Shown one piece after another: positions 852 through 27,115 of a stretch of 47,070 nt of DNA (its first letter is position 1; every line of letters starts with the position of its first letter). Made by a program: the position numbers and the translations under genes. This DNA comes from Minisyncoccota bacterium (lineage in GTDB: Bacteria; Patescibacteriota; Minisyncoccia; Phycocordibacterales; SBAW01): positions 1-47,070 of the forward strand of contig DASZRD010000009.1 in NCBI GenBank assembly GCA_035549255.1, written 5' to 3'. The notes beneath the pieces were generated by a model. It had not been told where the DNA came from and ran no database searches. It saw only the letters and a list, made by a program, of their open reading frames with translations.

Positions 852-1886
852 ATGAGCCTCCGGAGGGAACATATCATCCAAGCGCTCCTGGTCGCTGCTG
901 CCGCGGCGATCCTTATCTTCTGGCCTAATGGTTTGCAAGAGAGCATATACAAAGTAGAGCAGGGGATTGCGCCATGGGGCGACACGACGCTCCATACGCT
1001 CTTCGTTGGCGACGTGATGCTCGACCGCAATGTCGCAGTACACGCGAGGCAAGTGGGGGATGCGGCGCTTTTCGCGGGTGTCGAGCCGCTTTTTAAGAGT
1101 AAAGACATGGTGATCGGCAACCTCGAAGGCACGATCACCGACAATCAGTCGATTGCGCAGCAGGACCATACGATACTGCGCTTTACCTTCGACCCGCACT
1201 TTGCAATGTTCCTCAAATCAGTAGGCTTCACGGCGCTGAGCCAAGCCAATAACCACTCACTTGATTTCGGCAATGAAGGATACCTCCATACCATCGCATA
1301 TTTGCAGGCCGCGGGTATCGGCTACTTCGGCCATGCGCTCAATGAAGAGAACCTCTCGCTACAGCTTCAAGGCAAAGGGCAGATGCTGTGCCTGGTGGGC
1401 TACATGGAGCTCTTCAGGCCCGACCCGACGAGCGTCATAAACGAAATCAAGCGCTTGCGGCCGCTGTGCAGCGAAGTGGTCGTCATGCCGCATTGGGGTG
1501 TCGAGTATATGCATGAGCCAACGGATGCACAAGTGAGCCTCGCGCATGAGTTCATCGACGCTGGAGCGGATGTGATCGTAGGCGGGCACCCGCATGTCGT
1601 GGAACCTTTGGAAATTTATAACAACCATGCGATCTTCTACTCGCTCGGCAACTTCCTCTTCGACCAACCTTTCTCGCCGCAAGTGAGGCGCGGGCTTGCA
1701 GTCGGTATAGACTTCGCGGCCACCTCGACAAACTTTACTCTTATACCAACCAATACCTACCTCGAAGCGTCGCTTGCCGACGCCACAACCTCGCAAGCCG
1801 TCATGAGTGACGTAGTAACCGACGCACTGCCGCCGACAGTAGCGAAATCCATACAAACAACAGGCTCATTCGAGCTTGTAAAGTGA
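852..1886 (+). CDS. CapA family (PGA_cap, metallophosphoesterase-like) membrane-anchored protein
   Basis: Motifs GNLEGTITD, ANNHSLDFG, PHWGVEYMHEPT, GGHPHVVEP and YSLGNFLFDQ. N-terminal TM helix IIQALLVAAAAAILIFW. Confidence 0.85.
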   Translation: MSLRREHIIQALLVAAAAAILIFWPNGLQESIYKVEQGIAPWGDTTLHTLFVGDVMLDRNVAVHARQVGDAALFAGVEPLFKSKDMVIGNLEGTITDNQSIAQQDHTILRFTFDPHFAMFLKSVGFTALSQANNHSLDFGNEGYLHTIAYLQAAGIGYFGHALNEENLSLQLQGKGQMLCLVGYMELFRPDPTSVINEIKRLRPLCSEVVVMPHWGVEYMHEPTDAQVSLAHEFIDAGADVIVGGHPHVVEPLEIYNNHAIFYSLGNFLFDQPFSPQVRRGLAVGIDFAATSTNFTLIPTNTYLEASLADATTSQAVMSDVVTDALPPTVAKSIQTTGSFELVK

Positions 1887-1899
1887 TATACTAGGGTCA

Positions 1900-3621
1900 A
1901 TGCAGGAAGATCCTAACAAGATTACCTACTTCGCTCAGACCAACTCCCGCGGGAAGGAGGTGCCCTTCGGCATCAAGCGCAAGGACCGCGCACGCCACAT
2001 GTATGTGATCGGCAAAACCGGCATGGGGAAGTCGACTCTGCTTGAGAACATGGCTATACAAGACATCCGCAACGGCGAGGGCATGGCCTTCATCGACCCG
2101 CACGGCTCGACCGCTGACCGCATCATGGAGTACGTGCCCGAACATCGCATCAAGGACGTCGTGTACTTTGCGCCCTTCGACATGGACTACCCGGTGGCCT
2201 TCAACGTCATGGAGGACGTCGGCTACGACAAGCGCCACCTCGTGGTCTCGGGGCTCCTTGCTGCCTTCCGCAAGATCTGGGTCGACGCATGGTCGGCGCG
2301 CATGGAATATATTCTCTCCAATACCTTGCTCGCGCTCCTCGAGTACGAAGGCTCGACCCTGCTTGACGTCAACCGCATGCTCATCAACAAGGCTTTCCGC
2401 AAGAAGGTGGTCGAGAATGTCACCGACCCTATCGTGAAATCGTTCTGGGTCGACGAATTTGCCAACTATACCGACCGCTATACGCAGGACGCGACACCGG
2501 CGATCCAGAACAAGGTCGGACAATTCACGAGTAATCCTTTGATTCGCAACATTGTGGGGCAGGCGAAGTCCTCTTTCGACATCCGCAAATTGATGGACGA
2601 GAAGAAGATCCTCATCATGAACCTCTCCAAGGGCCGCGTCGGCGAGGTCAACGCGACGCTCTTGGGCTCGATGCTCGTTACCAAAATTTATCTCGCGGCG
2701 ATGTCGCGCGCCGACGTGCCGGCCAACGTGCTCAATGCCTTGCCTAACTTCTACTTCTACGTCGACGAGTTCCAAAACTTCGCCAACGAGAGCTTCTCGG
2801 ACATTCTCTCGGAGGCGCGCAAATACAAGCTCAATCTCCTGATCGCGCACCAGTATGTGGAGCAGATGGAGGAAGAAGTGCGCGACGCGGTCTTCGGCAA
2901 CGTGGGCACGACGGTGGCATTCCGCGTTGGGCCGTTCGACGCAGAGACCTTGGAGACCATCTTCAGCCCGCAGTTCACGCAGACCGACCTTGTGAACCTC
3001 GGCTTCGCGCAGATTTACCTCACCCTTATGATCGACGGCGTTGGCAGCCCGCCCTTTAGCGCCACGACGCTGCCACCCTTCGACCCGCCGCCCTCAAAGT
3101 ATGTCGATCAAGTGATCGAGAATTCGCGCCGCGAGTTCGGCAAGCCGCGCGCAGAGGTAGAGGATACGATCAAGAAGTGGCAGGAGAGCGACCCGGTCGT
3201 ACAAGAGCCCCCGAAGCCTAAAAAGTCGTACGGCGCTGCGAGCAAGCCTACACCAACGACTTCTCCATCGAGGCCAGTAGTGCAGCAGCCGCGAGAAAAT
3301 CGACCTGCACCAGTAGCACATCATCAGCAGGAAGAGCACAAGCCTCCGCAGCACGAGGCCCCGCCGCTTGAAGGCTCGCTGAGCTTGCGCGATGCTCTTG
3401 CGCGCGTGACGAGGACCAAGGAGGCGAGCGAGCCGCCTGCGCCGAAACCCGCGTCTAAGCCGGCGCCTAGGCCGATTACTCCAGACCCCTCGATCGATCT
3501 ACGGGCAGCGCTTCAGAATGTTGCTCCGCAAACGGCAAAGAAAGACGAGCCTGCGGGCTTGCCGGAAGACGTGCTTCGGTCTATGCTCGCCGTTGATGAA
3601 GGCGAAAATACTGCTGCTTAG
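1900..3621 (+). CDS. soluble P-loop NTPase of the VirD4/TraD/TraG (T4SS coupling-protein-like) family with a Pro-rich disordered tail
   Basis: Walker A GKTGMGKST and Walker B-like FYFYVDEFQNF, followed by LLIAHQYVEQM and GNVGTTVAFRVG as in TraG-D_C type ATPases. No N-terminal TM segments. The last ~170 aa are P/K/A/E-rich low complexity. Confidence 0.8.
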   Translation: MQEDPNKITYFAQTNSRGKEVPFGIKRKDRARHMYVIGKTGMGKSTLLENMAIQDIRNGEGMAFIDPHGSTADRIMEYVPEHRIKDVVYFAPFDMDYPVAFNVMEDVGYDKRHLVVSGLLAAFRKIWVDAWSARMEYILSNTLLALLEYEGSTLLDVNRMLINKAFRKKVVENVTDPIVKSFWVDEFANYTDRYTQDATPAIQNKVGQFTSNPLIRNIVGQAKSSFDIRKLMDEKKILIMNLSKGRVGEVNATLLGSMLVTKIYLAAMSRADVPANVLNALPNFYFYVDEFQNFANESFSDILSEARKYKLNLLIAHQYVEQMEEEVRDAVFGNVGTTVAFRVGPFDAETLETIFSPQFTQTDLVNLGFAQIYLTLMIDGVGSPPFSATTLPPFDPPPSKYVDQVIENSRREFGKPRAEVEDTIKKWQESDPVVQEPPKPKKSYGAASKPTPTTSPSRPVVQQPRENRPAPVAHHQQEEHKPPQHEAPPLEGSLSLRDALARVTRTKEASEPPAPKPASKPAPRPITPDPSIDLRAALQNVAPQTAKKDEPAGLPEDVLRSMLAVDEGENTAA

Positions 3622-6443: not shown

Positions 6444-7436
6444 ATGCGCATAGTCATCGCTACCGGGATCTACCCGCCGCAGGTGGGCGGGCCCGCCTAT
6501 TACGCCAAGGGCCTCGCTGAGGCTTATACAGAGCTCGGCCATGTCGCTGTGCCGGTGACCTACGGTGCGCTCTTGCGGCTGCCGATAGGCGTGCGGCATT
6601 TGGCTTACCTCGCGCGCCTTATCCCCAAGATGCGCAGTGCTAGCGCTGTCATTGCACTCGATACTTTTAGCGTTGCGATGCCAGCCGCTGTCGCGTGCAA
6701 GATCATGCGCATCCCACTTATCATCCGCACCGGCGGAGACTTCCTGTGGGAAGAGTACCTTGAGCGAACCGGAGAGATTATTTTGCTTAAAGATTTCTAC
6801 AACGCGCCGCGCGCACTTAACGTTAAAGAGAAGCTTATTGTCCGCATGACGCGCTTCGCTCTCGATCGTGCAAAATATATTGTCTTCAGCACCCGGCTTC
6901 AGCGCGATATCTGGACGAAGGCGTATGAGATCGACAGTAGCAAGACAAAGATTATAGAGAACGCCATCGAGCCGATGCTCGAGCCGGCTCCCGCAGCAGA
7001 AAAGAACTTTCTTTGGTATGTCCGGCCGACGGCGTTTAAGAATGCTGCACGCGTGCGCGAGGCGTTTTCCCTCGCGAAGAAAAAGTTTCCCGACATCACC
7101 CTCGAAGAAGGGCAGATCCCCAAAGCTCAACTTCTCGAGCGCATGAAAGGCTGCTACGCGGTCATATTGCCGTCGCTCACGGAGATCAGCCCCAATTACG
7201 TCATCGATGCGCTGCGCTTCCATAAGCCGTTTATCATGGACAAGTACTCGGGCTTGGCCGACGAGCTTGCACCCTATGGATTGCTTGTCGACCCGTTGAA
7301 GGTCGAGGATATCGCACGCGGCATCGAAGAGCTCGCGAGCGATGATGGCTACCAGCGCGCATTGGGGAAGGCAAAACAATTTAATCGCGCGCGTACGTAC
7401 CGCGAGATCGCTCAAGATTTTCTTGCACTTATATGA
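6444..7436 (+). CDS. GT-B fold glycosyltransferase (GT4/GT1-like)
   Basis: N-terminus MRIVIATGIYPPQVGGPAYYAKGLAEA. C-terminal PSLTEISPNYVIDALRFHKP block. Confidence 0.75.
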   Translation: MRIVIATGIYPPQVGGPAYYAKGLAEAYTELGHVAVPVTYGALLRLPIGVRHLAYLARLIPKMRSASAVIALDTFSVAMPAAVACKIMRIPLIIRTGGDFLWEEYLERTGEIILLKDFYNAPRALNVKEKLIVRMTRFALDRAKYIVFSTRLQRDIWTKAYEIDSSKTKIIENAIEPMLEPAPAAEKNFLWYVRPTAFKNAARVREAFSLAKKKFPDITLEEGQIPKAQLLERMKGCYAVILPSLTEISPNYVIDALRFHKPFIMDKYSGLADELAPYGLLVDPLKVEDIARGIEELASDDGYQRALGKAKQFNRARTYREIAQDFLALI

Positions 7437-8323
7437 GGGTTCTCATGATTACCGGCGACAAGAGCTTCGGCCCGGGTAATGCACGGTACGAGCTCCAACG
7501 CGCGCACGTTGAGGAATTGAAAGCCGTATATTGGGGCCGCGGCAGCGCCGGCGTGCCCGACGCATCCGGCTTTGACATCGTTACGTCGCAAGATCCTTTC
7601 TTGCGCGGGCTCGCGGCATTACGAGCAGCTCGCCGCGCCAAAGCAAAGCTCAACATTCAAGTGCACGCCGATCTCAAGGGGCAATCGTGGTGGAAGCGGC
7701 TCATCGCTCGCTATGTTTTGCGCCGGGCAGACTCGATCCGCGTCGTATCGCAACGCGCCGCAAACTCTCTGGAATCGATGCGATTGCGCGCCACGATTAC
7801 CGTCTTGTCGGTGTTCGTCGATAGTGAGGCATTCCGTAAGATTGTGCCGGTGCCGCATGAAGGAAAAATCATCCTCTGGATCGGGCGCTTCGAGCGCGAA
7901 AAAGATCCGCTCGGAGCGATTGAAATATATAAAGGAGTCCGCGCCGCGGGTATCGATGCCAAGCTCGTGATGCTTGGGAAGGGAAGCCTGGAGAAAAGTT
8001 TGCGTGCGGAAGCAGAGGGGTTGCCAGTAGACTTTCCCGGATGGGTCGACCCTAAGCCATACCTCGCGCAAGCGGATGTGGTGCTCTGTACCTCGCGGCA
8101 CGAGAGCTGGGGCGCAAGCATCGTCGAGGCGCTCGCGGCCGGCGTACCCGTTGTGGCGCCCGATGTTGGCATTGCGCGCGAGGCGGGCGCTACTGTCGTG
8201 CCGCGCTCGGACTTGGCCAAGGCAGTCGCAGAAGTGGTGCGTTCGGGCACCCGAGGGGCACTAGCGTTCCCGCTCCTCTCGCCGCAGGAATACGCGGCCG
8301 CCTTTGCCGCTTCGCTGTCATAG
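7433..8323 (+). CDS. glycosyltransferase family 4 (short form)
   Basis: ATGA start/stop overlap with the upstream gene. Motifs GRFEREKDP and SRHESWGASIVEALAAGVPVVAPDVG. Confidence 0.8.
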   Translation: MRVLMITGDKSFGPGNARYELQRAHVEELKAVYWGRGSAGVPDASGFDIVTSQDPFLRGLAALRAARRAKAKLNIQVHADLKGQSWWKRLIARYVLRRADSIRVVSQRAANSLESMRLRATITVLSVFVDSEAFRKIVPVPHEGKIILWIGRFEREKDPLGAIEIYKGVRAAGIDAKLVMLGKGSLEKSLRAEAEGLPVDFPGWVDPKPYLAQADVVLCTSRHESWGASIVEALAAGVPVVAPDVGIAREAGATVVPRSDLAKAVAEVVRSGTRGALAFPLLSPQEYAAAFAASLS

Positions 8324-8393
8324 GAGCCTGCGCAGGTTGCGTGGAAAAGCTTTTTTTAGTAACTTGCCTAGGCTTAGGAAGGTTGTAAAGGCC

Positions 8394-9212
8394 ATGAAAA
8401 AACGCGTCGGAATCGTAGGATACGGGTACGTAGGCAAGGCCATCGCGGCCTTTTTTGGCGACAAATTCGACGTAGCCGTATACGACCCCGCGCTGGGATA
8501 TGCCGATCGCGAGGCAGTCGCCGGCGCCGACCTTGCGGTCATTTGCGTGCCGACGCCGATGAAAGAGGACGGGAGCGTCGACGCGTCGGCGGTCGAGGAG
8601 ACGCTCATGTGGCTGCGCACGCCTTCGATCGTCATCAAGAGCACCGTGCCGCCCGGCACCACCGCGCGGCTTGCTGAGCGTTTCATGCTCCATGATCGTC
8701 TCGCCTTTTCTCCTGAATACATCGGCGAGGGCGGCTACCCGGTGCCGCACTGGGAAGGGATCCCGCACCCTACCGACATGAAGCTGCATACCTTTCATAT
8801 CTTCGGCGGCGCGCCGGAAGCGACATCTAAGGCGATACCATACTTCCAGCGCGTTGCGGGCCCCTTCGCTACGTACCACGCAACCGATAGCACGACCGCC
8901 GAGCTTACCAAATACGTGGAGAATACCTGGATCGCCACAAAGGTCGCGTACTGCAATGACATATACGATGTCGCCAAGACGTTCGGCGTCGATTACAACG
9001 CCCTGCGCGAATTGTGGCTGCTCGACGGCCGCGTCGGGCCATCGCATACGCTTGTCTATCCGAACAAGCGCGGGTTCGATGGCAAATGCATCCCTAAAGA
9101 CACGTTCGGCCTCTATCGTGCGGCGCAGACTGCCGGCTACGAGTCCAACCTCCTGCGCGGCGTGCTGGAGCAGAATCAGGCTTGGCAGCAGCAGAACCAG
9201 AAGAACGAATAG
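8394..9212 (+). CDS. UDP-glucose/GDP-mannose dehydrogenase family protein lacking the C-terminal nucleotide-sugar-binding domain
   Basis: RBS AGGAAGG lies upstream of the ATG at 8394. NAD motif VGIVGYGYVGKA. Catalytic-Cys motif GFDGKCIPKD (canonical GFGGSCFPKD). The protein is only 272 aa and ends soon after the central domain. Confidence 0.75.
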   Translation: MKKRVGIVGYGYVGKAIAAFFGDKFDVAVYDPALGYADREAVAGADLAVICVPTPMKEDGSVDASAVEETLMWLRTPSIVIKSTVPPGTTARLAERFMLHDRLAFSPEYIGEGGYPVPHWEGIPHPTDMKLHTFHIFGGAPEATSKAIPYFQRVAGPFATYHATDSTTAELTKYVENTWIATKVAYCNDIYDVAKTFGVDYNALRELWLLDGRVGPSHTLVYPNKRGFDGKCIPKDTFGLYRAAQTAGYESNLLRGVLEQNQAWQQQNQKNE

Positions 9213-9233: not shown

Positions 9234-10256
9234 ATGCGCCTACTTGTCTGCACCCAAGTGCTCGATCGTAATGACCCGTACCTCGGATTCTTCCATGCAT
9301 GGGTCGAAGAGCTCTCAACGCATTTCGAGAAGATAACGGTTATTTGCCTCAAGGAGGGGAGTCATGCGTTGCCGGAGAATGTGCGCGTGTTGAGCCTCGG
9401 TAAAGAAAATAATTCCTCGCGTCCCGCGCGCCTGTGGCGGCTCTTGCACTATGCGGCAAGCCACCGCGGCGAGTATGATGCCGTGTTTGTGCATATGAAC
9501 CAGGAATATATTCTTGCCGCGGGATGGCTTTGGAAATTCTTTGGCAAGCGTATATATCTGTGGCGAAACCACTACGCGGGCAGCGTACTTACTGATATTG
9601 CTGCGGCATTTTGCACAAAAGTATTTTGCACGTCGAAGTTTTCTTACACGGCTAAGTATGCCAAGACTGAGCTTATGCCGATCGGGGTCAACACAACGCT
9701 CTACCGGGATACAGGAGCTGTGCGCAAGCCGCGGTCGATACTCTTTTATGCACGCATGTCGCCAAGCAAGCGGCCGGACATCCTTGTCGAAGCGCTCGGT
9801 CTATTGCAACAAAGGGGAGTTGCATTCGTGGCTGATATCTACGGTACGCCGCTTCACAAAGATGAGGAATTTTTGGCAAAGCTCAAGCGCCGCGTCGAAG
9901 GTCTTGGCTTTGCGGATGTCGTGACGTTCTATCCCGGCACGGCACCGGCGGATGGGCCGGCGATATTCTCCGCGCACGAAATCTTCGTCAACCTTGGCGC
10001 AAGCGGCATGTACGACAAGACGCTCTTCGAGGCCGCAGCGTGCGAATGCTTGGTTGTAGCTGCGAGCAAGGATTGGACCGATCTTGTCGACGGTACTGTT
10101 GTTACGGACGAGATTTCTCTCGCTGGTATCCTCGAAAAAGAACTCTCGCTTACTGAATCTGAAAAACAGGCACAGAAAGCTTCGCTTCGCCGCGCGGTAG
10201 AGGATAACAGCCTCGAGAAGCTCGGTGAACGGCTCGCAAGTGCATTGCGCGCGTAG
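9234..10256 (+). CDS. GT-B fold glycosyltransferase
   Basis: N-terminus MRLLVCTQVLDRNDPYLGFFHAWVEEL. The size and the C-terminal GASGMYDKTLFEAAACECLVVA block resemble GT4-type enzymes. Confidence 0.7.
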   Translation: MRLLVCTQVLDRNDPYLGFFHAWVEELSTHFEKITVICLKEGSHALPENVRVLSLGKENNSSRPARLWRLLHYAASHRGEYDAVFVHMNQEYILAAGWLWKFFGKRIYLWRNHYAGSVLTDIAAAFCTKVFCTSKFSYTAKYAKTELMPIGVNTTLYRDTGAVRKPRSILFYARMSPSKRPDILVEALGLLQQRGVAFVADIYGTPLHKDEEFLAKLKRRVEGLGFADVVTFYPGTAPADGPAIFSAHEIFVNLGASGMYDKTLFEAAACECLVVAASKDWTDLVDGTVVTDEISLAGILEKELSLTESEKQAQKASLRRAVEDNSLEKLGERLASALRA

Positions 10257-10275
10257 CGGGTATACTTATCTTTAT

Positions 10276-10638
10276 ATGGCATACGTATTTTTACTCCTCG
10301 CATTTGTCATCAACGCGCTCGCGAGCATTCTGCTCAAGGTAGACGCGGCCTCGGCGCCGCTCTCGCTCGACAGGGGGTTCGGCGCGCTTATTGTCGAACA
10401 CAAGCTTCTCATCGCGGGGCTCGCGGCCTTCGGTGTCAATGTCATCCTCTACTGGCTCGCGCTCAAATCGCTGCCGCTCACGGTCGCGTACCCGGTTATG
10501 GTGGGCGGGAGCTTCGTCATCGTGCTCGGCTACGCGGCGCTGGCGCTCCACGAGGGGATAACCCTCTGGCAGCTCATGGGCTACGTACTTATTTTCGTCG
10601 GTATTCTTCTCGTACTCCTCAAAGGCTCGCAGGCGTAA
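10276..10638 (+). CDS. SMR/EamA-like 4-TM small membrane transporter (ArnE/ArnF size class, possible lipid-linked sugar flippase)
   Basis: 120 aa with four hydrophobic helices: MAYVFLLLAFVINALASILLK ... LPLTVAYPVMVGGSFVIVLGY ... LMGYVLIFVGILLVLL. The ATG at 10276 avoids overlap with the upstream GT. Confidence 0.65.
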   Translation: MAYVFLLLAFVINALASILLKVDAASAPLSLDRGFGALIVEHKLLIAGLAAFGVNVILYWLALKSLPLTVAYPVMVGGSFVIVLGYAALALHEGITLWQLMGYVLIFVGILLVLLKGSQA

Positions 10639-10643
10639 GGATA

Positions 10644-10672
10644 TTGACAAATATTATTTATTAATGTACAAA
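10644..10672 (+). promoter_or_regulatory. candidate sigma70-type promoter (TTGACA-17-TACAAA)
   Basis: Perfect -35 TTGACA at 10644-10649, a 17-nt AT-rich spacer, then TACAAA at 10667-10672. It lies about 40 nt upstream of a strong RBS. Confidence 0.45.
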
Positions 10673-10713
10673 GAATAAGGAAAATTCAACGAGGAATCCT
10701 AGGAGGAGATCCG

Positions 10714-10875
10714 ATGCTTCAGTTGGCTATTATTACTGGTTCTGCAAGCGTGGTGTTCGGCGGCGGCGTCTGGCAGGCAGCGAAAGCACAAAATGCTATA
10801 GCTGCCACTGGGCTGGCCGTGATAGGAATTACGGCAACTGCAGCGGCCCTGTTTTTCGGCCATCTATCTGTCTAA
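10714..10875 (+). CDS. unlisted 53-aa two-helix membrane peptide
   Basis: Consensus RBS AGGAGG at 10701-10706 sits 7 nt before the ATG. Translation: MLQLAIITGSASVVFGGGVWQAAKAQNAIAATGLAVIGITATAAALFFGHLSV. It is followed by an intrinsic terminator and is below the ORF-track length cut-off. Confidence 0.6.
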   Translation: MLQLAIITGSASVVFGGGVWQAAKAQNAIAATGLAVIGITATAAALFFGHLSV

Positions 10876-10893
10876 GACAAATTTCTGTCTCCA

Positions 10894-10935
10894 CCGGCAG
10901 CGCGTCCTCTTGACGCACTGCCGGTTTCTGTTGTT
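10894..10935 (+). terminator. rho-independent terminator
   Basis: Stem CCGGCAGCGCGTC / GACGCACTGCCGG (13 bp with one mismatch), loop CTCTT, then TTTCTGTTGTT. Confidence 0.7.
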
Positions 10936-10968
10936 CTAAAAGTGTTTTTGTAGTACAACGATGCTGTC

Positions 10969-12222
10969 ATGCGTTTGCAGGATATCAGCGGTATCAAGGG
11001 CGCAACCATCATACTCGACATCGACGGCACGCTTACCGTGCCGGGCGGCACGATTGTTGACCCGGTGCTTGTCGCGGTTGCCGCCAAATTGCGCGAGCAC
11101 AACGACGTATACCTCCTCTCCAACCGCGGCGACCATAAGCGCGACGCCCTTATTGCCGCGAGCTTGGGCATCGACTATATAACGACTCCGTTTCGCAAGC
11201 CGCATCCGGCCACGCTGCGTGGCGTTACGCGCAAAGAGACGCTCGTCGTCATCGGCGACAAGGTGCTTACCGACGGGCTGCTTGCGCTCTTTACTCGCGC
11301 GCGGTTTATCCGCGTCGAGCGGCTCGTCGGCGAGCGCGACGGTATGGCCGATCGTATCGCGCACGCGATAGACGACGTCGTTGCGTACGCCTGGAATGCG
11401 CTCCACCTGATGCGCCCGACCCAATGGGTCAAGAACGTGCTTGTCTTCGCGCCGCTCTTCTTCGCGCGCGAATTTTTTAACCCCTCGATCCTTTCTGCGA
11501 CAACTGCGGCGTTCGTAGCTTTCTGTTTTATCGCGAGCGCGGGGTATATCGTCAACGACGTACTCGATGTTGCCGCCGATCGGCTGCATCCGCACAAGAA
11601 GTACCGCCCGCTCGCGATGGGTTCGGTCACGGTCGGTATGGCGCTTGCGCTCTCCGCCGCACTCGCGCTCGCGGCGCTCGGCTTCCTTTTCATATACGCG
11701 CCGGGCGCGATCCTTATCAGCATTATCTACGGCATCTCCTCTGTCGCGTATAGCACCTACTTCAAGCGCGTACCGGTGATCGAAATGCTCGGCTTCATCT
11801 GGTTCTACTTCGCGCGGGTGCTTGCGGGAAGCATGGCGGGGAATGTGCCGCTCTCGGCGTGGATCGTGCTCGCGATCATCTTCCTCGCGCTGTTCCTCGT
11901 TGCCGCCAAACGCTACGCGGAGAAGACGCTTGGCCGCAGCCGCAGCGTGCTCGCTGCATACCCCGAGCGCTTCCTCGAGGGGCTACTTTTCCTCAGCGCG
12001 GGGCTGGTCGTCGTTTTCTACGGCGTCTACAGCGTGCTGGGCGTCGCCTCGCCGATCGCGGTCTACTCGGCAATCCCCGTACTCGCCGCTATACTCCGCT
12101 ATCTCCAGTTGGCATTTACAGGGCAGGCGGCAGAGTATCCCGAGCAGCTCCTCCTGCGCGACCGCGGGCTCCAGATAGCGGGCATAGCATGGTTTCTCAT
12201 CATGCTCGCGGTCTTCTATTGA
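10969..12222 (+). CDS. fusion protein: YqeG-type HAD-IIIA phosphatase domain + UbiA-superfamily polyprenyl-phosphate phosphoribosyltransferase-like domain
   Basis: N-terminal HAD motifs occur in order: ILDIDGT, LLSN, RKPHP, IGDKVLTD. The C-terminal multi-TM part has WVKNVLVFAPLFFA and NDVLDVAADRLHPHKKYRPLA (UbiA Asp-rich motif, DPPR-synthase-like). Confidence 0.8.
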   Translation: MRLQDISGIKGATIILDIDGTLTVPGGTIVDPVLVAVAAKLREHNDVYLLSNRGDHKRDALIAASLGIDYITTPFRKPHPATLRGVTRKETLVVIGDKVLTDGLLALFTRARFIRVERLVGERDGMADRIAHAIDDVVAYAWNALHLMRPTQWVKNVLVFAPLFFAREFFNPSILSATTAAFVAFCFIASAGYIVNDVLDVAADRLHPHKKYRPLAMGSVTVGMALALSAALALAALGFLFIYAPGAILISIIYGISSVAYSTYFKRVPVIEMLGFIWFYFARVLAGSMAGNVPLSAWIVLAIIFLALFLVAAKRYAEKTLGRSRSVLAAYPERFLEGLLFLSAGLVVVFYGVYSVLGVASPIAVYSAIPVLAAILRYLQLAFTGQAAEYPEQLLLRDRGLQIAGIAWFLIMLAVFY

Positions 12223-12284: not shown

Positions 12285-12896
12285 ATGCTCGTCCCGGCGC
12301 ATTCTCGCGCATGGCTTGAATGGCAGCTTGCCAGGCGGCCGTTCGTACCGAAGCAATCGCCGCTTTCCTCGCTCGGCTCGGCTGTGGCGGTGATCGCGGT
12401 ACCCTTCAACTGTTATCTGCACGAGCAGCCGCCCGACGCATCCAACCAGAAGATTGCGGAAATTGCTGCAAAGTACATGGAGATCTGCAGTCTTCCTTTC
12501 TTCGGCCAGTGGGAACACACGTCGCTCCTGCGGGAATTCCAGTTGAAGGGCAAGCTGAGCGCTGTTCGCATCGAAGAGTTCCAAAGCTCGAACGGCGAGC
12601 GCGTGATGTCGCAACGCCTGGTCAAGTGGCAGGCACAGCAAGTGCTTGGCTGCGGCAAGGGCGGCAATAAGGTGATTCTCGTCGGCATGCCCGAGCATCT
12701 CGGACGCGTCAAGATCCTGTGCGAATATTTCGGGCTCGACCCGCGCATCCCCGCGGACTGCATGGATGTTCCGTACGACCCGTCTGCGCGCTCCGGCGCT
12801 CAGGATTGGTGCAAGTCGTGGGAAGCGTTTTCGCGCTATGAAGTGACGACCGGCCGGCTCGGCACGATTGCCTATGCTCTGCTCGGTCTGGTCTGA
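12285..12896 (+). CDS. hypothetical protein (weak DUF218/YdcF/SanA-like resemblance)
   Basis: Good RBS. KVILVGMPEHLGRVKILCEYFGL loosely resembles the DUF218 block (VTsxxHmxRAxxxfxxxG). The family call is tentative. Confidence 0.6.
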   Translation: MLVPAHSRAWLEWQLARRPFVPKQSPLSSLGSAVAVIAVPFNCYLHEQPPDASNQKIAEIAAKYMEICSLPFFGQWEHTSLLREFQLKGKLSAVRIEEFQSSNGERVMSQRLVKWQAQQVLGCGKGGNKVILVGMPEHLGRVKILCEYFGLDPRIPADCMDVPYDPSARSGAQDWCKSWEAFSRYEVTTGRLGTIAYALLGLV

Positions 12897-12967: not shown

Positions 12968-14002
12968 ATGCGATTTTTCATCACCGGTGGGGCGGGGTTT
13001 CTTGGTATCAATCTGACGCGGCATCTGCTGAAGTCGGGCCACCAGGTGCGCTCGTACGACCTCATGCCTTTTGATTACCCGGAGAAGGACCAGGTCAGCG
13101 TCGTTACGGGCGACATCCGCGACTATGCCGCGCTCGCGGCCGCCATGGAGGGCGCCGACGTCGTCGTGCACACCGCCGCGGCGCTGCCGCTCTACAAGGC
13201 CGAAGATATCCGCAGTACCGATATCGACGGCACGCGCAACGTGCTGCGCGCCGCGAAGGCTAACAACATCCCGCGCGTCGTGCACATCTCATCGACCGCG
13301 GTGTACGGCATCCCCGACCATCACCCGCTCTTTGAGGACGACAAGCTCGACGGCGTCGGCGAGTACGGCAAGGCCAAGATTGCCGCGGAAGAGCTGTGCC
13401 GCGAATACCGCGCGCAGGGAATGATCGTGCCGATTATCAGGCCCAAATCATTCGTCGGGCCCGAGCGCCTCGGCGTCTTCGCGCTCTTCTACGACTGGGC
13501 GGCGGATGGGCACAACTTCCCGATGATCGGCTCCGGCCGCAACCGCTACCAACTCCTCGACGTCGAGGATCTTTGCGAGGCAATTTCGCTCGCCTCGACG
13601 CTTCCGGCCGACCGCGCTAATGACACGTTCAATATCGGCGCCAAGGAATTCACAACCATGAAGGAAGATTATCAGGCCGTGCTCGACCGCGCCGGCTTCG
13701 GCAAGCATATCGTCGGGCTTCCTGCGGCGCCGGCCATTTGGACGCTCAGGTTCCTCGAGATGCTCCACCTCTCGCCGCTCTACAAGTGGGTCTACGAGAC
13801 CGCAAGCAAAGACAGCTTCGTCTCTATAGACCGCGCCAAGCTCAAGCTTGGCTACGCGCCAAAATATTCCAACAAGCAGGCGCTCGTGCGCAACTACGAC
13901 TGGTATCTCTCCAAGCGCGAGAGCTTCAAGGGCGAGAGCGGCGTCACGCACCGCGTGCCGTGGAAGCAGGGCATACTCTCGGTCGCGAAGCTCTTCTTCT
14001 AA
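12968..14002 (+). CDS. NAD-dependent epimerase/dehydratase (extended SDR)
   Basis: Motifs MRFFITGGAGFLGINLTRHLL, VVHTAA, SSTAVYG and catalytic YGKAK. Confidence 0.85.
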   Translation: MRFFITGGAGFLGINLTRHLLKSGHQVRSYDLMPFDYPEKDQVSVVTGDIRDYAALAAAMEGADVVVHTAAALPLYKAEDIRSTDIDGTRNVLRAAKANNIPRVVHISSTAVYGIPDHHPLFEDDKLDGVGEYGKAKIAAEELCREYRAQGMIVPIIRPKSFVGPERLGVFALFYDWAADGHNFPMIGSGRNRYQLLDVEDLCEAISLASTLPADRANDTFNIGAKEFTTMKEDYQAVLDRAGFGKHIVGLPAAPAIWTLRFLEMLHLSPLYKWVYETASKDSFVSIDRAKLKLGYAPKYSNKQALVRNYDWYLSKRESFKGESGVTHRVPWKQGILSVAKLFF

Positions 14003-14010
14003 TATCGCCT

Positions 14011-15084
14011 ATGCGCCTTTCTCTACGCGATGGCGCAGTTGTTCTTGCGATACTCTACGTCATCGTGTCTTCAATAGCGTTCGCCTGTGGGATACATAAA
14101 GACATCTCAACGGAACCCGACAAGGATCGCACCTATTATCAGGAGTTCTATACCCACATTTGGCATGCCGGCCTCCTGCAGCATCCCTCCAGCCCACCTA
14201 ATGGCACCAATATAATCTATGGCGGCCCCGACGGTGCCGCAGGCTTCAACGCGGCAATACACTTCGAGCCGATAAAATATGTCGCTGCTGCAGTATTTGA
14301 TGCTTTCGGCACGATACATGCGGTTGAGATTTTCTATATACTCCTGTTTTTTATGCCGTTGCTGTATGGGGCGTATCTGCTCCGCAGCGGCACGGGCGGC
14401 GTCGTACTCTTCGTGTGCATGGCCGCCTATGCCATATCTCCTGCCGCCCTACCGACTGCAGTCGACGACCTGCGCCCCTACATTGCACTCCTCCCTGCGC
14501 TGCTCATGTTCTTTATCTCGGTGCGGTATGCTCGGCCAGCGCGGGAGCAGCTACTATTCCTCAACCTGCTCCTTGCCGTGCGCGAGGAAGGGCTGTTCCT
14601 CGCGCTGCCGGTGCTGGCGTATACGCTGGCGCGCGACTACCTGGCAAGAGGCTCAACCTCCCGCACCAACATGCTGCTCTGTGCCAATTGGCTTGCATGG
14701 CTGGGCATCGAGTCGGCGTACTATACGTGGCTCAGCGCGTATTACTCTGTCCGGGGCGGCTGGCTCGCGCTCTACCGGCTTGCCGCCCATCGTTGGTATA
14801 TTGCCGCTGCTCTTTGCGCTATGCTTGCTGGATTGGCGTATGGCTTCCGGCGGGTTGTGTTGAGAGTCAAGTATCTTCCCGAATTGCTGCTCGCCGGACC
14901 CTTCGTGGCAGCACTGCTGGCTTCGCCGTTTTTAGGCCTATCGCAGCCGCCTGGCTCGCCGGGGTTCCTGATCCAGGACCTCTCCGGCCGCTTCGGCATA
15001 GCATTGACCGTGACGGCGCTTATGATCGCGCTTGCGTGCTCTCCAAATGGAAGTGCCGAGAACAGGCGCGGGTATCTAGCGTAA
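14011..15084 (+). CDS. polytopic integral membrane protein, function unknown (possibly DUF2079/GT-C-like)
   Basis: The ATG at 14011 follows the SDR stop. The upstream part of the listed 13738 ORF overlaps the SDR gene in another frame. About 9 hydrophobic segments. An IHFEPIKYV block resembles DUF2079, but weakly. Confidence 0.6.
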   Translation: MRLSLRDGAVVLAILYVIVSSIAFACGIHKDISTEPDKDRTYYQEFYTHIWHAGLLQHPSSPPNGTNIIYGGPDGAAGFNAAIHFEPIKYVAAAVFDAFGTIHAVEIFYILLFFMPLLYGAYLLRSGTGGVVLFVCMAAYAISPAALPTAVDDLRPYIALLPALLMFFISVRYARPAREQLLFLNLLLAVREEGLFLALPVLAYTLARDYLARGSTSRTNMLLCANWLAWLGIESAYYTWLSAYYSVRGGWLALYRLAAHRWYIAAALCAMLAGLAYGFRRVVLRVKYLPELLLAGPFVAALLASPFLGLSQPPGSPGFLIQDLSGRFGIALTVTALMIALACSPNGSAENRRGYLA

Positions 15085-16722
15085 TTTATACACGGCAACC
15101 GTCGGCCCAAGCAGCTTATCGGAGAAAAAGAACGGCAGCGGCGTAATAAAGAAGCTGTGTGCTACTGAGAACGAGTTGCCGAAGCCGTCCCATTGCGCGA
15201 CGAGCTTGCCTTGCGCGGCGAGTTGGGAGAGCTGGCTTGCGACCGCAGGATCGCTTATATCCGCGGGCGTATATATGAGGTAGTCATATCCCTCGGCCTT
15301 GGCATATGCGGCAAGATTATCGAGGAAATGCTCGTTGTCGACTGCGTAGAGATTCAACGCATAGGGAACGCCGAGATTAAGGGCAGCTTCTGCTTGATCG
15401 GTCTTGCGTACGGCGGCAGGGTCGATGTTATTGAGCTCTTGCGTCGAGGAGGCGGTTACGGGGAAGCGCATAAGCTCGCCGTATACGAGCACTTTGTCCG
15501 CGGGATCGAGCGTGAGCTCCCATTGTCGCGCGAGCTGCCGCGTGTCGCCCTGGTATGCAAGCCATGACAGCCGGAGCGAGGCGACGAGCGGTACAAGCAA
15601 TACTAGCAGGAACAGTATGGCCACCGGCTTCCATTGCCGGCACAAATTCCATAAGAATCCGCCGAGCAGCGCATACAAAGGTACGAGCGGCAGCAGGAAA
15701 CGGGGCTCGAATATCGCCAGGCAATAAAACAGCAGCGAGTAGAAGATAAAGAACGAAACGAAGAACGCGAACCATCGCCGCTTTTCAAACCACAATGCCG
15801 TCGCTCCCAGTACGGCGAGGCCTGCAAGCACCGGCTCCGCAAGGCCATGGGTTCTGAGCGCGGAAAGGGGGCTGGCGAGTATGCCGCCCAGGGAAGTATA
15901 TTGATGCAGTTCAAATACGCCGCCGAGGAAGCCCTGGCTGTAGGGGTATATGAGGGAAGGCAGGGGCGCTAAGATAATGAATGCGGCAGCGCCGGCAAGT
16001 ATCCACCGGTCGCGTAGCGCGTCTTTGAAGCTGAGATGTCCGATCGTAAAGAACCAGAACGCGAGAAGGACTACGGTTACTGAGGAAAAGGTTGAGATAC
16101 CCATTCCCAGGCCTGCGGTAAGAAGCGAATAGCATATGCGCTTGTTCTCCGGTATGCGCTCGCGAGTCAGGATGTAGAGCACGATAACAAATAGCAGGGA
16201 GATAGGCAGCCAGTGCCTGCCGACCATGGAGAGGCTTTCGTGGATGAGGCTTGTCGCGAGCAGGAATGCGCTGACCGCCGCGCCTCCTCGCGACTTAAAG
16301 ATGGTATACGAGATCTGGTATACCAGCCACACCGAGGCGGCGCCGAGCAAGGCGCTGATGAGCCGCGCTGCCATGAAGAAGTATGACAGGTCGCTCATTA
16401 CATGCGGGATGAAAAGCGTGCCATGCCAGAAAACGTACTGGATACCGATGATCGCGGCAAAGGGAATCAGGTAAAGGTAGCTCAGGTAGGGAGGATAGTA
16501 GAGTATGTTTTTAAATGCATCCGCGTGCAGCGCCGGAATGATGGTGTGAGTCTGAAGCATTTGCAGGGCTCCCAGCGTGAAGGGAGGCTCGTCATCGACG
16601 AGGGTTAGCGGGAGGCCGTAATGCACTCCTGCTATACGCAGCAAGAATGCAAGCCCGACGATAATCCAGATGACGGAGCCGGACTCAACCCATAAGCGTA
16701 TTCGAAATACAAGCTGCTGCAT
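15076..16722 (-). CDS. GT-C fold glycosyltransferase (GT39/GT83, PMT/ArnT-like)
   Basis: The first-loop acidic motif GLPLTLVDDEPPFTLG follows TM1. About 12 TM helices are followed by a soluble C-terminal domain. Confidence 0.8.
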   Translation of the reverse strand: MQQLVFRIRLWVESGSVIWIIVGLAFLLRIAGVHYGLPLTLVDDEPPFTLGALQMLQTHTIIPALHADAFKNILYYPPYLSYLYLIPFAAIIGIQYVFWHGTLFIPHVMSDLSYFFMAARLISALLGAASVWLVYQISYTIFKSRGGAAVSAFLLATSLIHESLSMVGRHWLPISLLFVIVLYILTRERIPENKRICYSLLTAGLGMGISTFSSVTVVLLAFWFFTIGHLSFKDALRDRWILAGAAAFIILAPLPSLIYPYSQGFLGGVFELHQYTSLGGILASPLSALRTHGLAEPVLAGLAVLGATALWFEKRRWFAFFVSFFIFYSLLFYCLAIFEPRFLLPLVPLYALLGGFLWNLCRQWKPVAILFLLVLLVPLVASLRLSWLAYQGDTRQLARQWELTLDPADKVLVYGELMRFPVTASSTQELNNIDPAAVRKTDQAEAALNLGVPYALNLYAVDNEHFLDNLAAYAKAEGYDYLIYTPADISDPAVASQLSQLAAQGKLVAQWDGFGNSFSVAHSFFITPLPFFFSDKLLGPTVAVYKLR

Positions 16723-16774
16723 GGCAATGGCAATACTATACCGGGTAGGATACTATAACGCCATACTCATACTT

Positions 16775-17224
16775 ATGAAACCCCTCGCGAGGCGCTTCTC
16801 GCTGTTTATCCAGGTTGGAATCGTTGGCGCTATGGGTGCGGTTATCCAAGAATGCCTCTTGTTCGCGCTCGTGCGATGGTGCGGGCTGCACCCCGTGCTC
16901 GCTAATACAATCGCAGCAGAGACGGCGATCATCTGCAACTTTACCGTTAATAACTTGTGGACATTCGGCAATGTCAGCGCGCACATCCTCCCCAAACGTT
17001 TTGCTATCTTCAATGCGAGCGCGTTGGTATCGATCGGTATTCAGGCGCTTGTGGTCTGGGCGGGGATTCGCTTCCTAAGCTCGGAATGGTATCTGGTGTA
17101 TGCCGGCATCGGAATTTTTATAGGGTTGCTGTTCAATTATGTACTGTATACTCGGGTAATTTGGAGAAGGGGAGCGAGCGCATCCCATGACGCCGAACCC
17201 GAGCCAAAGCCTGAATCCGCATGA
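16775..17224 (+). CDS. GtrA family membrane protein (putative polyprenyl-P-sugar flippase)
   Basis: FSLFIQVGIVGAMGAVIQECLLFALV ... ETAIICNFTVNNLWTFG is the typical GtrA pattern. The ATG at 16775 leaves a 52-bp divergent promoter region. Confidence 0.8.
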   Translation: MKPLARRFSLFIQVGIVGAMGAVIQECLLFALVRWCGLHPVLANTIAAETAIICNFTVNNLWTFGNVSAHILPKRFAIFNASALVSIGIQALVVWAGIRFLSSEWYLVYAGIGIFIGLLFNYVLYTRVIWRRGASASHDAEPEPKPESA

Positions 17225-19717: not shown

Positions 19718-21481
19718 ATGTGTGGAATATTAGGCCTATCAGAAGGGGATGAGCCGCTTGTACGCAAGGCGGCAAGTACCATTTCTTATCGAGGTCCTGA
19801 CGCCTCTGGCGTATATACCGATGGGGAGGTAACTCTGGGCCATAACCGGCTTTCGGTTATTGACCTCGACCCTAGATCCAATCAGCCTTTTTTTGATCCA
19901 GAAGGTAAGGTCGGTCTTGTGTATAACGGCGAGATCTATAACTACCGCTCAATCAAAACTGAATTGGAACGGACAGGTAAGTATGTCTTTCGCACCAACT
20001 CAGATACTGAAGTAGTGCTCTATGCCTATAAAGAGTGGAAGGAAAAGGTGGTAAATCATCTAGAGGGTATGTACGCCTTTGCCGTATACGACCGAGAGCG
20101 CCAGCAAATAATATTGTGTACCGATCAGGCGGCGATCAAGCCGCTCGTGTATGCCAACATTCAAGGCGTGTTGGCGTTTGGCTCAGAAGTTAAGGCTGTG
20201 GTTGCTATGTTGCGAGAGAAGAATATTTCTATCCATGTCGACCAAGATGCGCTCTCGCTTTACTATGCGGTTGGATATATTCCCGCGCCTGCAACACTGT
20301 ATCAGGAAGTGCGCCGGTTGCGGCCTCGAACCTGGGGGGTCTTTGATCTTAAGACACACACCTTTACAGAGACACAATACGCGTTGCCGTTGGTATCGGC
20401 GCAGAGCCAAGAAGGAATGCGAGCTCTTATTGAAAAGTCAGTAGAACAACATCTTGTCGCTGATGTGCCGGTCGGGCTCTTTTTTTCTGGCGGGACTGAC
20501 TCTTCTCTCATTGCTGCTGTACTAAAGAAGTTTGGCGTACAACTCGAAGCCTTCTGCGTTGAGATAGCAGACCGCCCAGAGGACGCGCAGTATGCACAGA
20601 AAATCAGCATAGAACTTGGGATGTCACTACATAATTTTACATTCGGGCCTAAAGAGTTTGATGACATATATGAGTCTATCGTCTCCCGTTTGGATGAACC
20701 GTTGGCCGACAGCTCGCTCTTCCCAACATGTTTCGTTGCACAAAAGGCCGCAGAAAAAGTAAAAGTCGTACTCTCCGGCGAGGGGGGAGACGAATTTTTC
20801 TTTGGTTATCCGCGCAGTCGATACCTCCAAAAGCTACACGGCGCTCCTCTTGATTCGGAGGCAGGCTTATTCGAAAGGATATTTTTCCTGCTGCCCATAT
20901 TCAAGGGTAAAAACAAATTGTTCGAACGAATTTTCATATTGATGCGCAAGCCAGTAGCGTTCTACCTACTCACAATGTCGCCCACTAAAAGCCGGATGAG
21001 TTTTCTAATGTGGAAAGGAGCAAAACGCACGCTTGCGGCGTTGGCGCAAAACGCTGACGCTCTCGATGCCGACACCTACTTGCCGTATGACCTCCTGCGG
21101 AAAACGGATATAGCGACTATGTATGCTTCTCTCGAAGGCCGTGTGCCTTTGCTTGCGCCAGAAGTTATCTCTGCCGCGCGAGCAACTCCACAGCACCTGG
21201 GTACCGGTGAGCTCAAACCGCTCCTTAAAAAGATATTGGCGTCGTACATTCCTGCGGACTTGGTATATCGCAAGAAGACCGGCTTCGGCCTGCGCGCGCG
21301 CAGTTTCTTTTCACAGTCGGCGCATGTGCGCGCTGATCTTGAGAATGCAAAGTCGTACTTATCTTCTCGCGGATATTTACCGATAGACGTACCAAGAGAG
21401 GAAGATATGCTTGCTCATTACCCCAACCTTTGCTGGCAATTGATCTCTCTCTACCATGTTTTGCGAAACGCTGGCATATGA
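19718..21481 (+). CDS. asparagine synthase (glutamine-hydrolysing) family amidotransferase
   Basis: N-terminal nucleophile MCGILG. PP-loop motif SGGTDSS. Confidence 0.9.
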   Translation: MCGILGLSEGDEPLVRKAASTISYRGPDASGVYTDGEVTLGHNRLSVIDLDPRSNQPFFDPEGKVGLVYNGEIYNYRSIKTELERTGKYVFRTNSDTEVVLYAYKEWKEKVVNHLEGMYAFAVYDRERQQIILCTDQAAIKPLVYANIQGVLAFGSEVKAVVAMLREKNISIHVDQDALSLYYAVGYIPAPATLYQEVRRLRPRTWGVFDLKTHTFTETQYALPLVSAQSQEGMRALIEKSVEQHLVADVPVGLFFSGGTDSSLIAAVLKKFGVQLEAFCVEIADRPEDAQYAQKISIELGMSLHNFTFGPKEFDDIYESIVSRLDEPLADSSLFPTCFVAQKAAEKVKVVLSGEGGDEFFFGYPRSRYLQKLHGAPLDSEAGLFERIFFLLPIFKGKNKLFERIFILMRKPVAFYLLTMSPTKSRMSFLMWKGAKRTLAALAQNADALDADTYLPYDLLRKTDIATMYASLEGRVPLLAPEVISAARATPQHLGTGELKPLLKKILASYIPADLVYRKKTGFGLRARSFFSQSAHVRADLENAKSYLSSRGYLPIDVPREEDMLAHYPNLCWQLISLYHVLRNAGI

Positions 21482-23687: not shown

Positions 23688-23690
23688 ATA

Positions 23691-24953: not shown

Positions 24954-25051
24954 TTCGAGAAGATAGTACCACACGCAAGCAACTTTCTCTAGGGTTTTAG
25001 GGTTACTATATATTGCAAAAAGCTATAAAAGAGGTCATAGTGTAGCTTCCA

Positions 25052-26077: not shown

Positions 26078-26084
26078 GCAAAAT

Positions 26085-27098: not shown

Positions 27099-27115
27099 CA
27101 AGTTACTTGCTATAT
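27093..27115. repeat. 23-bp perfect-arm palindrome spanning a stop codon, the whole intergenic gap and the next start codon
   Basis: ATATAGCAAGT t ACTTGCTATAT with 11-bp arms. It covers the TAG at 27096-27098 and the first two bases of the ATG at 27114. Confidence 0.9.

Follow-up and report, generated by a model that had tools for sequence, protein, structure and literature searches.

The locus described here raises the question of what is done by a single protein in which a phosphatase of the haloacid dehalogenase (HAD) superfamily is followed by a membrane enzyme of the UbiA superfamily, encoded by a bacterium of the Candidate Phyla Radiation (CPR). The gene lies in a 47,070-nt stretch of DNA from a Minisyncoccota bacterium (GenBank assembly GCA_035549255.1, contig DASZRD010000009.1, positions 1 to 47,070, forward strand); this whole stretch is referred to as the window. 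The open reading frame (ORF) starts with an ATG at 10969 and ends with a stop codon at 12220-12222 on the + strand. An initial annotation had proposed that it joins a class IIIA HAD phosphatase of the YqeG/GEP4 type to a transferase resembling decaprenyl-phosphate phosphoribosyltransferase (DPPRS), and every motif named in support of this (ILDIDGT, LLSN, RKPHP and IGDKVLTD in the HAD half, together with those of the UbiA half) was present in the ORF. The parts of the gene are as follows.

10969..12222, + strand: whole fused gene, 417 aa, consisting of HAD phosphatase, linker helix and UbiA-type phosphoribosyltransferase
10969..11343, + strand: HAD domain, residues 1-125, a capless Rossmannoid core, YqeG/PgpP-like class IIIA
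11017-11019: predicted nucleophile D17 of the HAD domain, with D19 at 11023-11025
11344..11412, + strand: linker helix ahead of the first transmembrane helix (TM1), residues 126-148, helical in the AlphaFold2 (AF2) model, with D135 at 11371-11373
11413..12219, + strand: putative UbiA-superfamily polyprenyl-phosphate 5-phosphoribosyltransferase domain, residues 149-417, nine transmembrane helices

The protein is predicted to be a bifunctional polyprenyl-phosphate ribofuranose synthase, whose product would be passed to downstream epimerase, flippase and GT-C glycosyltransferase steps. From sequence comparison, we assign this reading a probability of about 0.8.

A database search and alignment gave 29 full-length homologues of 415-441 aa with identities of 34-100%, the named ones being from Candidatus Paceibacterota. 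The AF2 model of the 417-aa protein, made from a homologue alignment, had a pLDDT of 91.9 and a pTM of 0.85, and in it a minimal Rossmannoid HAD core without a cap is followed by a long helix at residues 126-148 and by nine membrane helices.

In the Pfam search, residues 163-382 matched the UbiA domain PF01040 (E = 5e-21). The top NCBIfam matches were all DPPRS models, namely NF008978 (195.2 bits), NF008977 (164 bits) and NF008976 (156 bits), whereas the models for quinone, haem and archaeal-lipid prenyltransferases scored 28-37 bits (UbiA 31, CyoE 28). When the protein was compared with PDB sequences by phmmer, residues 145-411 aligned to residues 18-294 of Mycobacterium tuberculosis Rv3806c (8J8J) with an E-value of 2.8e-41, compared with 2e-5 for the next family, digeranylgeranylglyceryl phosphate synthase (DGGGPS). 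Foldseek superposed the model on 8J8J with a TM-score of 0.86 (target-normalised), an rmsd of 2.7 Å and 36% identity, and the nine long helices after residue 149 reproduce the 9-TM fold of Rv3806c (PDB 8J8J/8J8K), to which the identity was about 36% over 267 residues. By these comparisons the UbiA half is a homologue of the Rv3806c-type decaprenyl-phosphate phosphoribosyltransferase, and its earlier placement nearer to Rv3806c than to the quinone and haem prenyltransferases was borne out.

The residues of Rv3806c that contact phosphoribosyl pyrophosphate (PRPP) and decaprenyl phosphate are named in the cryo-EM paper on this enzyme, in which the phosphoribose-binding residues were found not to be conserved across the wider UbiA superfamily (PMC10994848). 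Mapping via the alignment indicated that 11 of the 13 contacts with PRPP and the lipid phosphate are kept, each in 28 or 29 of the 29 homologues; the K208 column of this mapping is unreliable. In Rv3806c numbering, the kept residues are the ligands of the PRPP pyrophosphate (R22, K87, R90, K143 and Y138), of the 5-phosphate (K28, Y70 and Y157), of Mg (N73 and D77, both also contacting PRPP) and of the lipid phosphate (K28, Y157 and K191) (PMC10994848). In the window protein, K155, Y193 and Y280 make up the predicted pocket for the 5-phosphate. The motif N196 D197 xx D200 xxx D204, encoded at 11554-11580 and corresponding to N73, D74, D77 and D81 of Rv3806c, was invariant (29/29), as were K314 and R315. 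Because phosphoribose-binding residues that are not kept across the UbiA superfamily are conserved here, PRPP specifically is argued to be the donor. Rv3806c itself has no phosphatase domain, and M. tuberculosis uses a separate, non-HAD phosphatase of the PAP2 type, Rv3807c; subsequent removal of the 5-phosphate would be needed in both the Rv3806c pathway and that of the window enzyme.

All four catalytic motifs were found in the HAD half, and their conservation among the 29 homologues holds down to 34% identity. Invariant positions were D17, D19 and G20 in motif I, S51 and N52 in motif II, P78 in motif III, and G96, D97 and D102 in motif IV, with T21 (motif I) and K77 (motif III) present in at least 90%. 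The nucleophile Asp, on which the phosphatase assignment depends, is thus in place in a proper alignment. DSSP analysis of the model gave strands at residues 12-17, 46-50, 91-96 and 112-115 and no cap insert, and motifs I and II are separated by about 34 residues, leaving no cap.

Regarding the subfamily, the NCBIfam scan matched residues 8-126 to TIGR01668 (YqeG HAD-IIIA; E = 9e-11), and PF09419 was matched weakly, at 19.6 bits relative to a cutoff of 20.4. TIGR01668 and TIGR01662 were matched by all 24 family HAD domains scanned, in every case below the cutoff and ahead of any other family; a HAD-IB model was matched by one of the 24, and marginally. Comparison of the family HAD profile with Bacillus subtilis YqeG by hhalign gave a probability of 98% and an E-value of 7e-14 over 110 columns. 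D34 and D36 of the YqeG sequence used agree with the residues in the PgpP paper. Foldseek searches of the PDB with the HAD-only model returned weak, generic HAD matches (best E = 3e-3), with no YqeG or Gep4 structure among the matches listed, and the subfamily assignment therefore rests on sequence profiles. By these profiles the closest subfamily is the capless YqeG/PgpP(Gep4)-like class IIIA, the type named in the initial annotation.

YqeG is PgpP, the Gram-positive phosphatidylglycerophosphate (PGP) phosphatase and a homologue of yeast Gep4 (PMC11804483). The window HAD shares with YqeG/PgpP of B. subtilis and Staphylococcus aureus and with Gep4 the same capless core and the DxDxT and GDxxxTD motifs, and differs in lacking the approximately 25-residue N-terminal extension of YqeG. 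The proven substrate of these enzymes, PGP, is a lipid with a head-group phosphomonoester, chemically analogous to polyprenyl-P-ribose-5-P (PMC11804483). Since YqeG/PgpP already acts on a lipid head group ending in a phosphomonoester, polyprenyl-P-ribose-5-P would be a natural substrate for a HAD recruited from it. The substrate of the window HAD is predicted to differ from that of YqeG/PgpP, and so does the setting: the former is fused to or beside a PRPP-dependent transferase in glycan clusters, whereas YqeG belongs to a housekeeping operon.

A precedent for both steps in one polypeptide is available. ORF15 of Citrobacter youngae O1 has an N-terminal HAD domain ('PRP') and a C-terminal Rv3806c-like PPPRS domain (Kelly et al., PNAS 2024, PMC11127046), the same domain order as in the window protein. 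With PRPP as the donor it forms farnesyl-P-ribofuranose, and the 5-phosphate intermediate builds up when the nucleophile is mutated (D18A); the partners of ORF15 are a small flippase and a GT-C glycosyltransferase that founded family GT136, and in serotype O2 an SDR (short-chain dehydrogenase/reductase) epimerase turns the ribofuranose into xylofuranose (PMC11127046). Homologous systems were listed in the same paper for Burkholderia, Rhizobium, Escherichia coli, Xanthomonas, Bacillus and a phage (PMC11127046). The same logic, PRPP transfer followed by HAD 5-dephosphorylation within one polypeptide, is also seen in the gPRT-PRP ribofuranosyltransferases, whose transferase domain, in contrast, is cytoplasmic and not of the UbiA superfamily and acts straight on the glycan with no lipid donor, their HAD being of the PRP type (PMC11127046).

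By analogy to ORF15, for which the same two-step chemistry from PRPP is known, the window protein would act as follows. The UbiA domain, embedded in the membrane with its Asp-rich loops on the cytoplasmic side, would transfer the 5-phosphoribosyl group of PRPP to polyprenyl phosphate, giving polyprenyl-P-ribofuranose-5-P. The HAD domain, which an interfacial helix on that cytoplasmic side connects to TM1, would then strip the 5-phosphate via an aspartyl-phosphate intermediate on D17, giving polyprenyl-P-ribofuranose. Residue conservation, the ORF15 precedent and gene linkage make this the best explanation of the fused polypeptide, as had been suggested. The two-step mechanism itself was already known, because ORF15 has been shown to carry out both steps, and its occurrence outside the Actinobacteria, to which the initial annotation had pointed, had been established by ORF15 and the proteobacterial fusions. 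What was known by 2024 is the bifunctional HAD-UbiA logic; what is new here is the non-orthologous HAD domain, the CPR host and the mosaic of fused and split forms. In the literature search, no paper came up that connects DPPRS-like enzymes or pentofuranose systems with CPR bacteria.

ORF15 probably belongs to the NCBIfam type NF006088/PRK08238, as judged from its length of about 490 aa, the NCBI name, and the presence of Burkholderia multivorans and Rhizobium among the tBLASTn homologues in the paper. Fusions of the NF006088 type are widespread on plasmids of Proteobacteria; they were found on those of Paracoccus, Rhizobium leguminosarum, Sinorhizobium fredii NGR234, Vibrio and Burkholderia stagnalis, and 80 plasmid records carried a near-full-length homologue. 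The two fusions scanned (L001 and L002, from Paracoccus and R. leguminosarum) scored 576 and 639 bits on NF006088, whereas the window protein scored 161 bits, relative to a cutoff of 351, and matched with its UbiA part only (profile positions 191-371). The difference lies in the HAD domain, which in the NF006088 type (L001, L002 and L086-L088) has about 190 aa, is of the capped HAD-IB/PF12710 class and has about 75 residues between motifs I and II, corresponding to the cap; that of the window protein has about 125 aa and is capless IIIA. Alignment of the two HAD profiles (window family and PRK08238) by hhalign was confined to motif I, with 17 columns and a probability of 39%, and BLASTP between the window-type and NF006088-type HADs gave no significant match. 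In the neighbour-joining (NJ) tree, the five NF006088 UbiA domains formed one clade in 96 of 100 bootstraps, which included no IIIA-fused protein. The hosts differ as well, the NF006088 type being proteobacterial and the window protein coming from a CPR bacterium. Because the HAD subfamily is different, independent fusion is the most economical reading, and by these comparisons the IIIA-UbiA fusion probably arose independently of the NF006088-type fusion.

Whether the two halves occur fused or merely adjacent was surveyed by scanning one genome per species and analyzing the 80 best loci (designated by L-numbers) by tblastn and HMM. Both arrangements were observed. The IIIA HAD was fused to UbiA at 8 loci, labelled Paceibacterota, Zambryskibacteria, Saccharibacteria, Peribacteria and Minisyncoccia, and had its own ORF next to the UbiA gene at 4; at the other 68, mostly from Actinobacteria, no IIIA HAD was found. 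All 12 HAD-positive loci belong to CPR. Two metagenome contigs added further split arrangements, with the gene orders UbiA, SDR, HAD (L091) and UbiA, HAD, SMR (L092), SMR denoting a small multidrug resistance-like membrane protein. Such fused or adjacent occurrence makes a true Rosetta-stone pattern. L038 (Peregrinibacteria) had UbiA, a 154-aa HAD, SMR and SDR in this order, and the C-terminus of this stand-alone HAD, '...NSVDDIAFKFFKLWGIFS', has a helix comparable to the linker helix, with a DD motif. In L012, from a metagenome-assembled genome (MAG) labelled Saccharibacteria, the order was UbiA, SDR, SMR and a 515-aa protein (10188-11735, + strand) in which a YqeG-like HAD is fused to a GT-B-like domain, the UbiA gene lying about 1.4 kb upstream. 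In L015 (7328-8846) and L017 (7082-8412), HAD and UbiA are in overlapping stop-to-stop ORFs in different frames, which could be overlapping genes or MAG frameshifts. Gracilibacteria, the label of L015, use an alternative code in which UGA is read as Gly.

In profile searches with the HAD domain, almost every one of the best 120 of 204 hits (clusters) was a stand-alone HAD of about 150 aa. Four of these were sampled; two, those of L091 and L092, were directly beside a DPPRS-like UbiA gene and two had no UbiA gene within 5 kb. In the latter two, on L090 (5001-5447) and the P0271 contig, the stand-alone HAD was located directly upstream of genes for a GT2 glycosyltransferase, a Bac_transf phosphoglycosyl transferase and a Wzy-like protein, and this HAD subfamily may have a second lipid-linked phosphosugar substrate. 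Two larger proteins were also noted: P0233 (780 aa) has a long multi-pass membrane N-terminal half, GT-C/ArnT-like by eye, and a C-terminal DPPRS-like domain, and P0190 (767 aa) has HAD-UbiA followed by an additional soluble C-terminal domain of about 380 aa. In NJ trees of the UbiA domain, the CPR fused and split group formed a clade in a single replicate out of 100, and the fused proteins P0022 and P0159 fell elsewhere; as the deep nodes were not resolved, no number of fusion or fission events is claimed.

The genes around the fused gene form a candidate pentofuranose module, the closest related locus being L003 (63% identity).

8304..9212, + strand: short UDP-glucose/GDP-mannose dehydrogenase-like gene upstream of the GT4 gene (Pfam matches)
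9234..10256, + strand: GT4 glycosyltransferase (Pfam matches)
10276..10638, + strand: SMR/ArnE-ArnF-like small membrane protein of about 120 aa (weak matches to EamA, Multi_Drug_Res, ArnF and ArnE)
12968..14002, + strand: extended SDR with an epimerase-like active site (PF01370, E = 1.7e-39)
14011..15084, + strand: multi-pass membrane protein of 357 aa (50% identity to the protein at the same position in L003)
15076..16722, - strand: candidate GT-C-fold glycosyltransferase, PMT_2 (PF13231, E = 7e-6, 26.7 bits relative to a cutoff of 26.1)
16670..17224, + strand: GtrA-family membrane protein (PF04138, E = 6e-20)

This set resembles the neighbourhood of ORF15 and the NF006088 type, in which a small flippase, a GT-C glycosyltransferase and, optionally, an SDR epimerase are found. 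By gene content, the module matches the three-component pentofuranose system (PPPRS, flippase and GT-C, with or without epimerase), the roles of the individual genes being inferred. In most of the CPR loci examined, SMR and SDR genes lay with the HAD/UbiA genes, and an SMR homologue was directly beside them in L003, L004, L012-L015, L017, L038 and L092.

The ORF of the SDR as listed starts with TTG at 12947, and its homologues align from about the ATG at 12968. Reading of its sequence showed the GalE-like motifs GGAGFLG, SSTAVYG and YGKAK, without the Asp-Glu pair of 4,6-dehydratases. Across the CPR loci that have a UbiA gene the SDR was 63-84% identical, compared with 32-65% for the UbiA domain. 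Over its full length it also showed 35% identity (E = 6e-70) to the epimerase that adjoins the SMR gene in the PPPRS cluster of NGR234. The SDR is thus a candidate epimerase for polyprenyl-P-ribofuranose. In M. tuberculosis, epimerisation requires DprE1, an FAD enzyme, together with DprE2, whereas the window has a single neighbouring extended SDR. As side observations, the HAD-UbiA protein as a whole was about 30-65% identical across CPR lineages, far less conserved than the adjacent SDR; the C-terminal 100 residues of the SDR are common to the NGR234 PPPRS-cluster epimerase; and the SDR gene of L003 begins about 50 nt after the UbiA gene. In the window, a 203-aa ORF (12285-12896, + strand) lies between the fused gene and the SDR gene; it had no Pfam or NCBIfam match and no tblastn homologue in the related CPR loci searched.

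For the later steps, genomic context suggests that the SDR probably epimerises the lipid-linked ribose to xylofuranose (Xylf, by inversion at C3) or arabinofuranose (Araf, by inversion at C2), that the SMR-like protein and/or the GtrA protein would flip the donor across the membrane, and that a GT-C enzyme would add the pentofuranose to the surface glycan made by the surrounding GT4/Wzx/Wzy cluster. The final sugar would be ribofuranose (Ribf), Xylf or Araf. The SMR-like protein is a candidate flippase for the lipid-linked pentose and the GtrA protein a candidate second flippase; a GtrA-family gene was found after the PRK08238 gene in R. leguminosarum and within the same cluster in B. stagnalis. 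The PMT_2 protein, with homologues beside the module in L003 (44% identity), L006 and L091, is a candidate for the enzyme that consumes the lipid-linked pentose outside the membrane. The 357-aa membrane protein, which gave no Pfam or NCBIfam match, is a possible glycosyltransferase or polymerase of the module. Homologues of the GT4 (33-68% identity) were located upstream of the fused gene in L003, L007, L008, L009 and L014. In L003 a PRPP synthetase gene (6917-7903, - strand) lies on the other strand as the direct upstream neighbour of the fused gene, and tblastn detected no copy in the 47-kb window. The dehydrogenase-like gene encodes 290-302 aa with the N-terminal and central domains and without the C-terminal PF03720, and the same short form was present in L003 (4709-5581).

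Several findings weigh against the two-step reading. None of the DPPRS models reached its NCBIfam cutoff (195.2 bits relative to 207 for NF008978, 164 relative to 234 for NF008977 and 156 relative to 474 for NF008976), Q135 of Rv3806c, which contacts O3 of the ribose, is replaced by S or N in the family, TIGR01668 scored 44.8 bits relative to a cutoff of 89.1, about half, and some stand-alone HADs of the same subfamily have GT2, Bac_transf and Wzy genes as neighbours and no UbiA gene closer than 5 kb. As two sampled HADs lack a UbiA neighbour, this HAD subfamily is not confined to the proposed reaction. Regarding the transferase, membership in PF01040 and the pipeline names of such proteins ('UbiA family prenyltransferase', '4-hydroxybenzoate polyprenyltransferase') would fit an ordinary aromatic or haem prenyltransferase of the UbiA, MenA, CyoE or DGGGPS type, with a HAD unrelated to sugar chemistry. 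With 195 bits for DPPRS relative to 28-37 for the UbiA, CyoE and DGGGPS models, E-values of 2.8e-41 and 2e-5 in the PDB comparison, and an invariant K/R cluster specific to the PRPP-using enzyme, this identity is highly improbable and effectively refuted. The fusion could also be suspected to be an artefact of assembly or gene calling, two neighbouring genes having been run together through a chimeric junction or the loss of a stop codon, as related genomes do have split HAD and UbiA genes and L015 and L017 carry both parts in different frames. However, an exhaustive HMMER search of 1.84 billion representatives, with 8,748 hits at E ≤ 1e-10, retrieved from independent data sets about 46 full-length fused representatives (clustering at 50% identity), which outranked thousands of stand-alone relatives of 280-310 aa; 8 fused loci were present among the species-representative genomes, and the fused architecture repeats across independent assemblies of several CPR lineages. 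The junction (about 11340-11400) falls within the conserved and confidently modelled helix 126-148, in which D135 was invariant in the 29 aligned homologues. Because the junction is inside a conserved helix and the fusion recurs in independent assemblies, an artefact is very unlikely, with next to no probability left to it; the fusion is real, and to the extent that sequence data can tell, neither a chimera nor a hidden frameshift is involved.

The remaining alternatives accept the fusion and the transferase and assign another task to the phosphatase. It might be a housekeeping PGP phosphatase of the PgpP/Gep4 type, or another lipid phosphatase, for which the fusion serves as a membrane anchor while a different enzyme removes the 5-phosphate; the nearest characterised subfamily is indeed YqeG (PgpP), and some stand-alone relatives are not beside a UbiA gene. 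The score at half the TIGR01668 cutoff argues against this, as does the fusion or adjacency of the HAD to a DPPRS-like gene, in three gene orders, at all 12 of the CPR species-representative loci where it was detected. Pfam scans of the module genes (8.3-17.2 kb of the window) found no PAP2 or other phosphatase to take over the 5-phosphate, and CPR bacteria largely lack phospholipid synthesis. We consider this possibility improbable. A HAD that supplies a substrate, by converting polyprenyl-PP to the polyprenyl-P acceptor or by acting on a soluble sugar phosphate of the glycan pathway, would be in line with the catalytic versatility of HAD enzymes and the many sugar-nucleotide enzymes encoded at the locus, and appears more improbable still. 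In the ORF15 precedent the fused HAD dephosphorylates the product, the HAD of the CPR loci co-varies with the UbiA gene and not with sugar-nucleotide genes, and it is capless, capless HAD enzymes usually preferring large or macromolecular substrates to small soluble ones. Transfer from PRPP followed by 5-dephosphorylation in one polypeptide is thus the reading that we prefer.

A broader evolutionary reading is offered only tentatively, and we regard it as rather less probable than its opposite. CPR bacteria may have built the combination of PRPP transferase and 5-phosphatase independently of Proteobacteria by taking up a PgpP/Gep4-type phosphatase for lipid head groups where the latter have the HAD-IB PRP domain. 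In this lineage it would have been repeatedly fused, split and re-fused (with UbiA, with GT-B, or standing alone) and, together with the unusually conserved, membrane-associated extended SDR, would lead to polyprenyl-P-Xylf or polyprenyl-P-Araf without DprE1/DprE2.

With regard to the wider window, the DNA to about 33 kb is a surface-glycan cluster encoding GT4 enzymes, an asparagine synthase, a C-methyltransferase, two GDP-mannose dehydratases, Wzx and a Wzy/ligase, and is followed by housekeeping genes. Positions 20001-28000 had a G+C content of 47-52%, compared with 57-60% elsewhere; this stretch holds the tail of the asparagine synthase gene, two GT4 genes, the C-methyltransferase gene, two paralogues of GDP-mannose 4,6-dehydratase and the start of an unannotated ORF, and may be a horizontally acquired glycan sub-cluster. 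The left end, ahead of the glycan cluster, carries at 852-3621 (+ strand) a PGA_cap (CapA-like) gene together with a gene for a VirD4/TraG-type coupling-protein-like ATPase.

The known chemistry is left unchanged by these results, the core idea having been demonstrated in 2024. If the two-step reading is true, the CPR fusion would be a second, independently derived solution for removing the 5-phosphate left by PRPP-dependent glycosyl transfer, and thus a case of convergent domain recruitment. The HAD would have been recruited from a subfamily that acts on a lipid head group, which hints at the substrate range of the little-known YqeG/PgpP family, and the highly conserved SDR partner would be a candidate for an epimerase that handles lipid-linked pentoses as a single protein. 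The reach of the recently described three-component pentofuranose pathway would be widened to CPR bacteria, whose surface glycans are essentially uncharacterised and probably mediate attachment to host bacteria. Should the more tentative reading of independent recruitment also hold, these ultrasmall episymbiotic bacteria would coat themselves with pentofuranose-bearing glycans. The fused gene is a concrete lead into the surface glycobiology of CPR bacteria.

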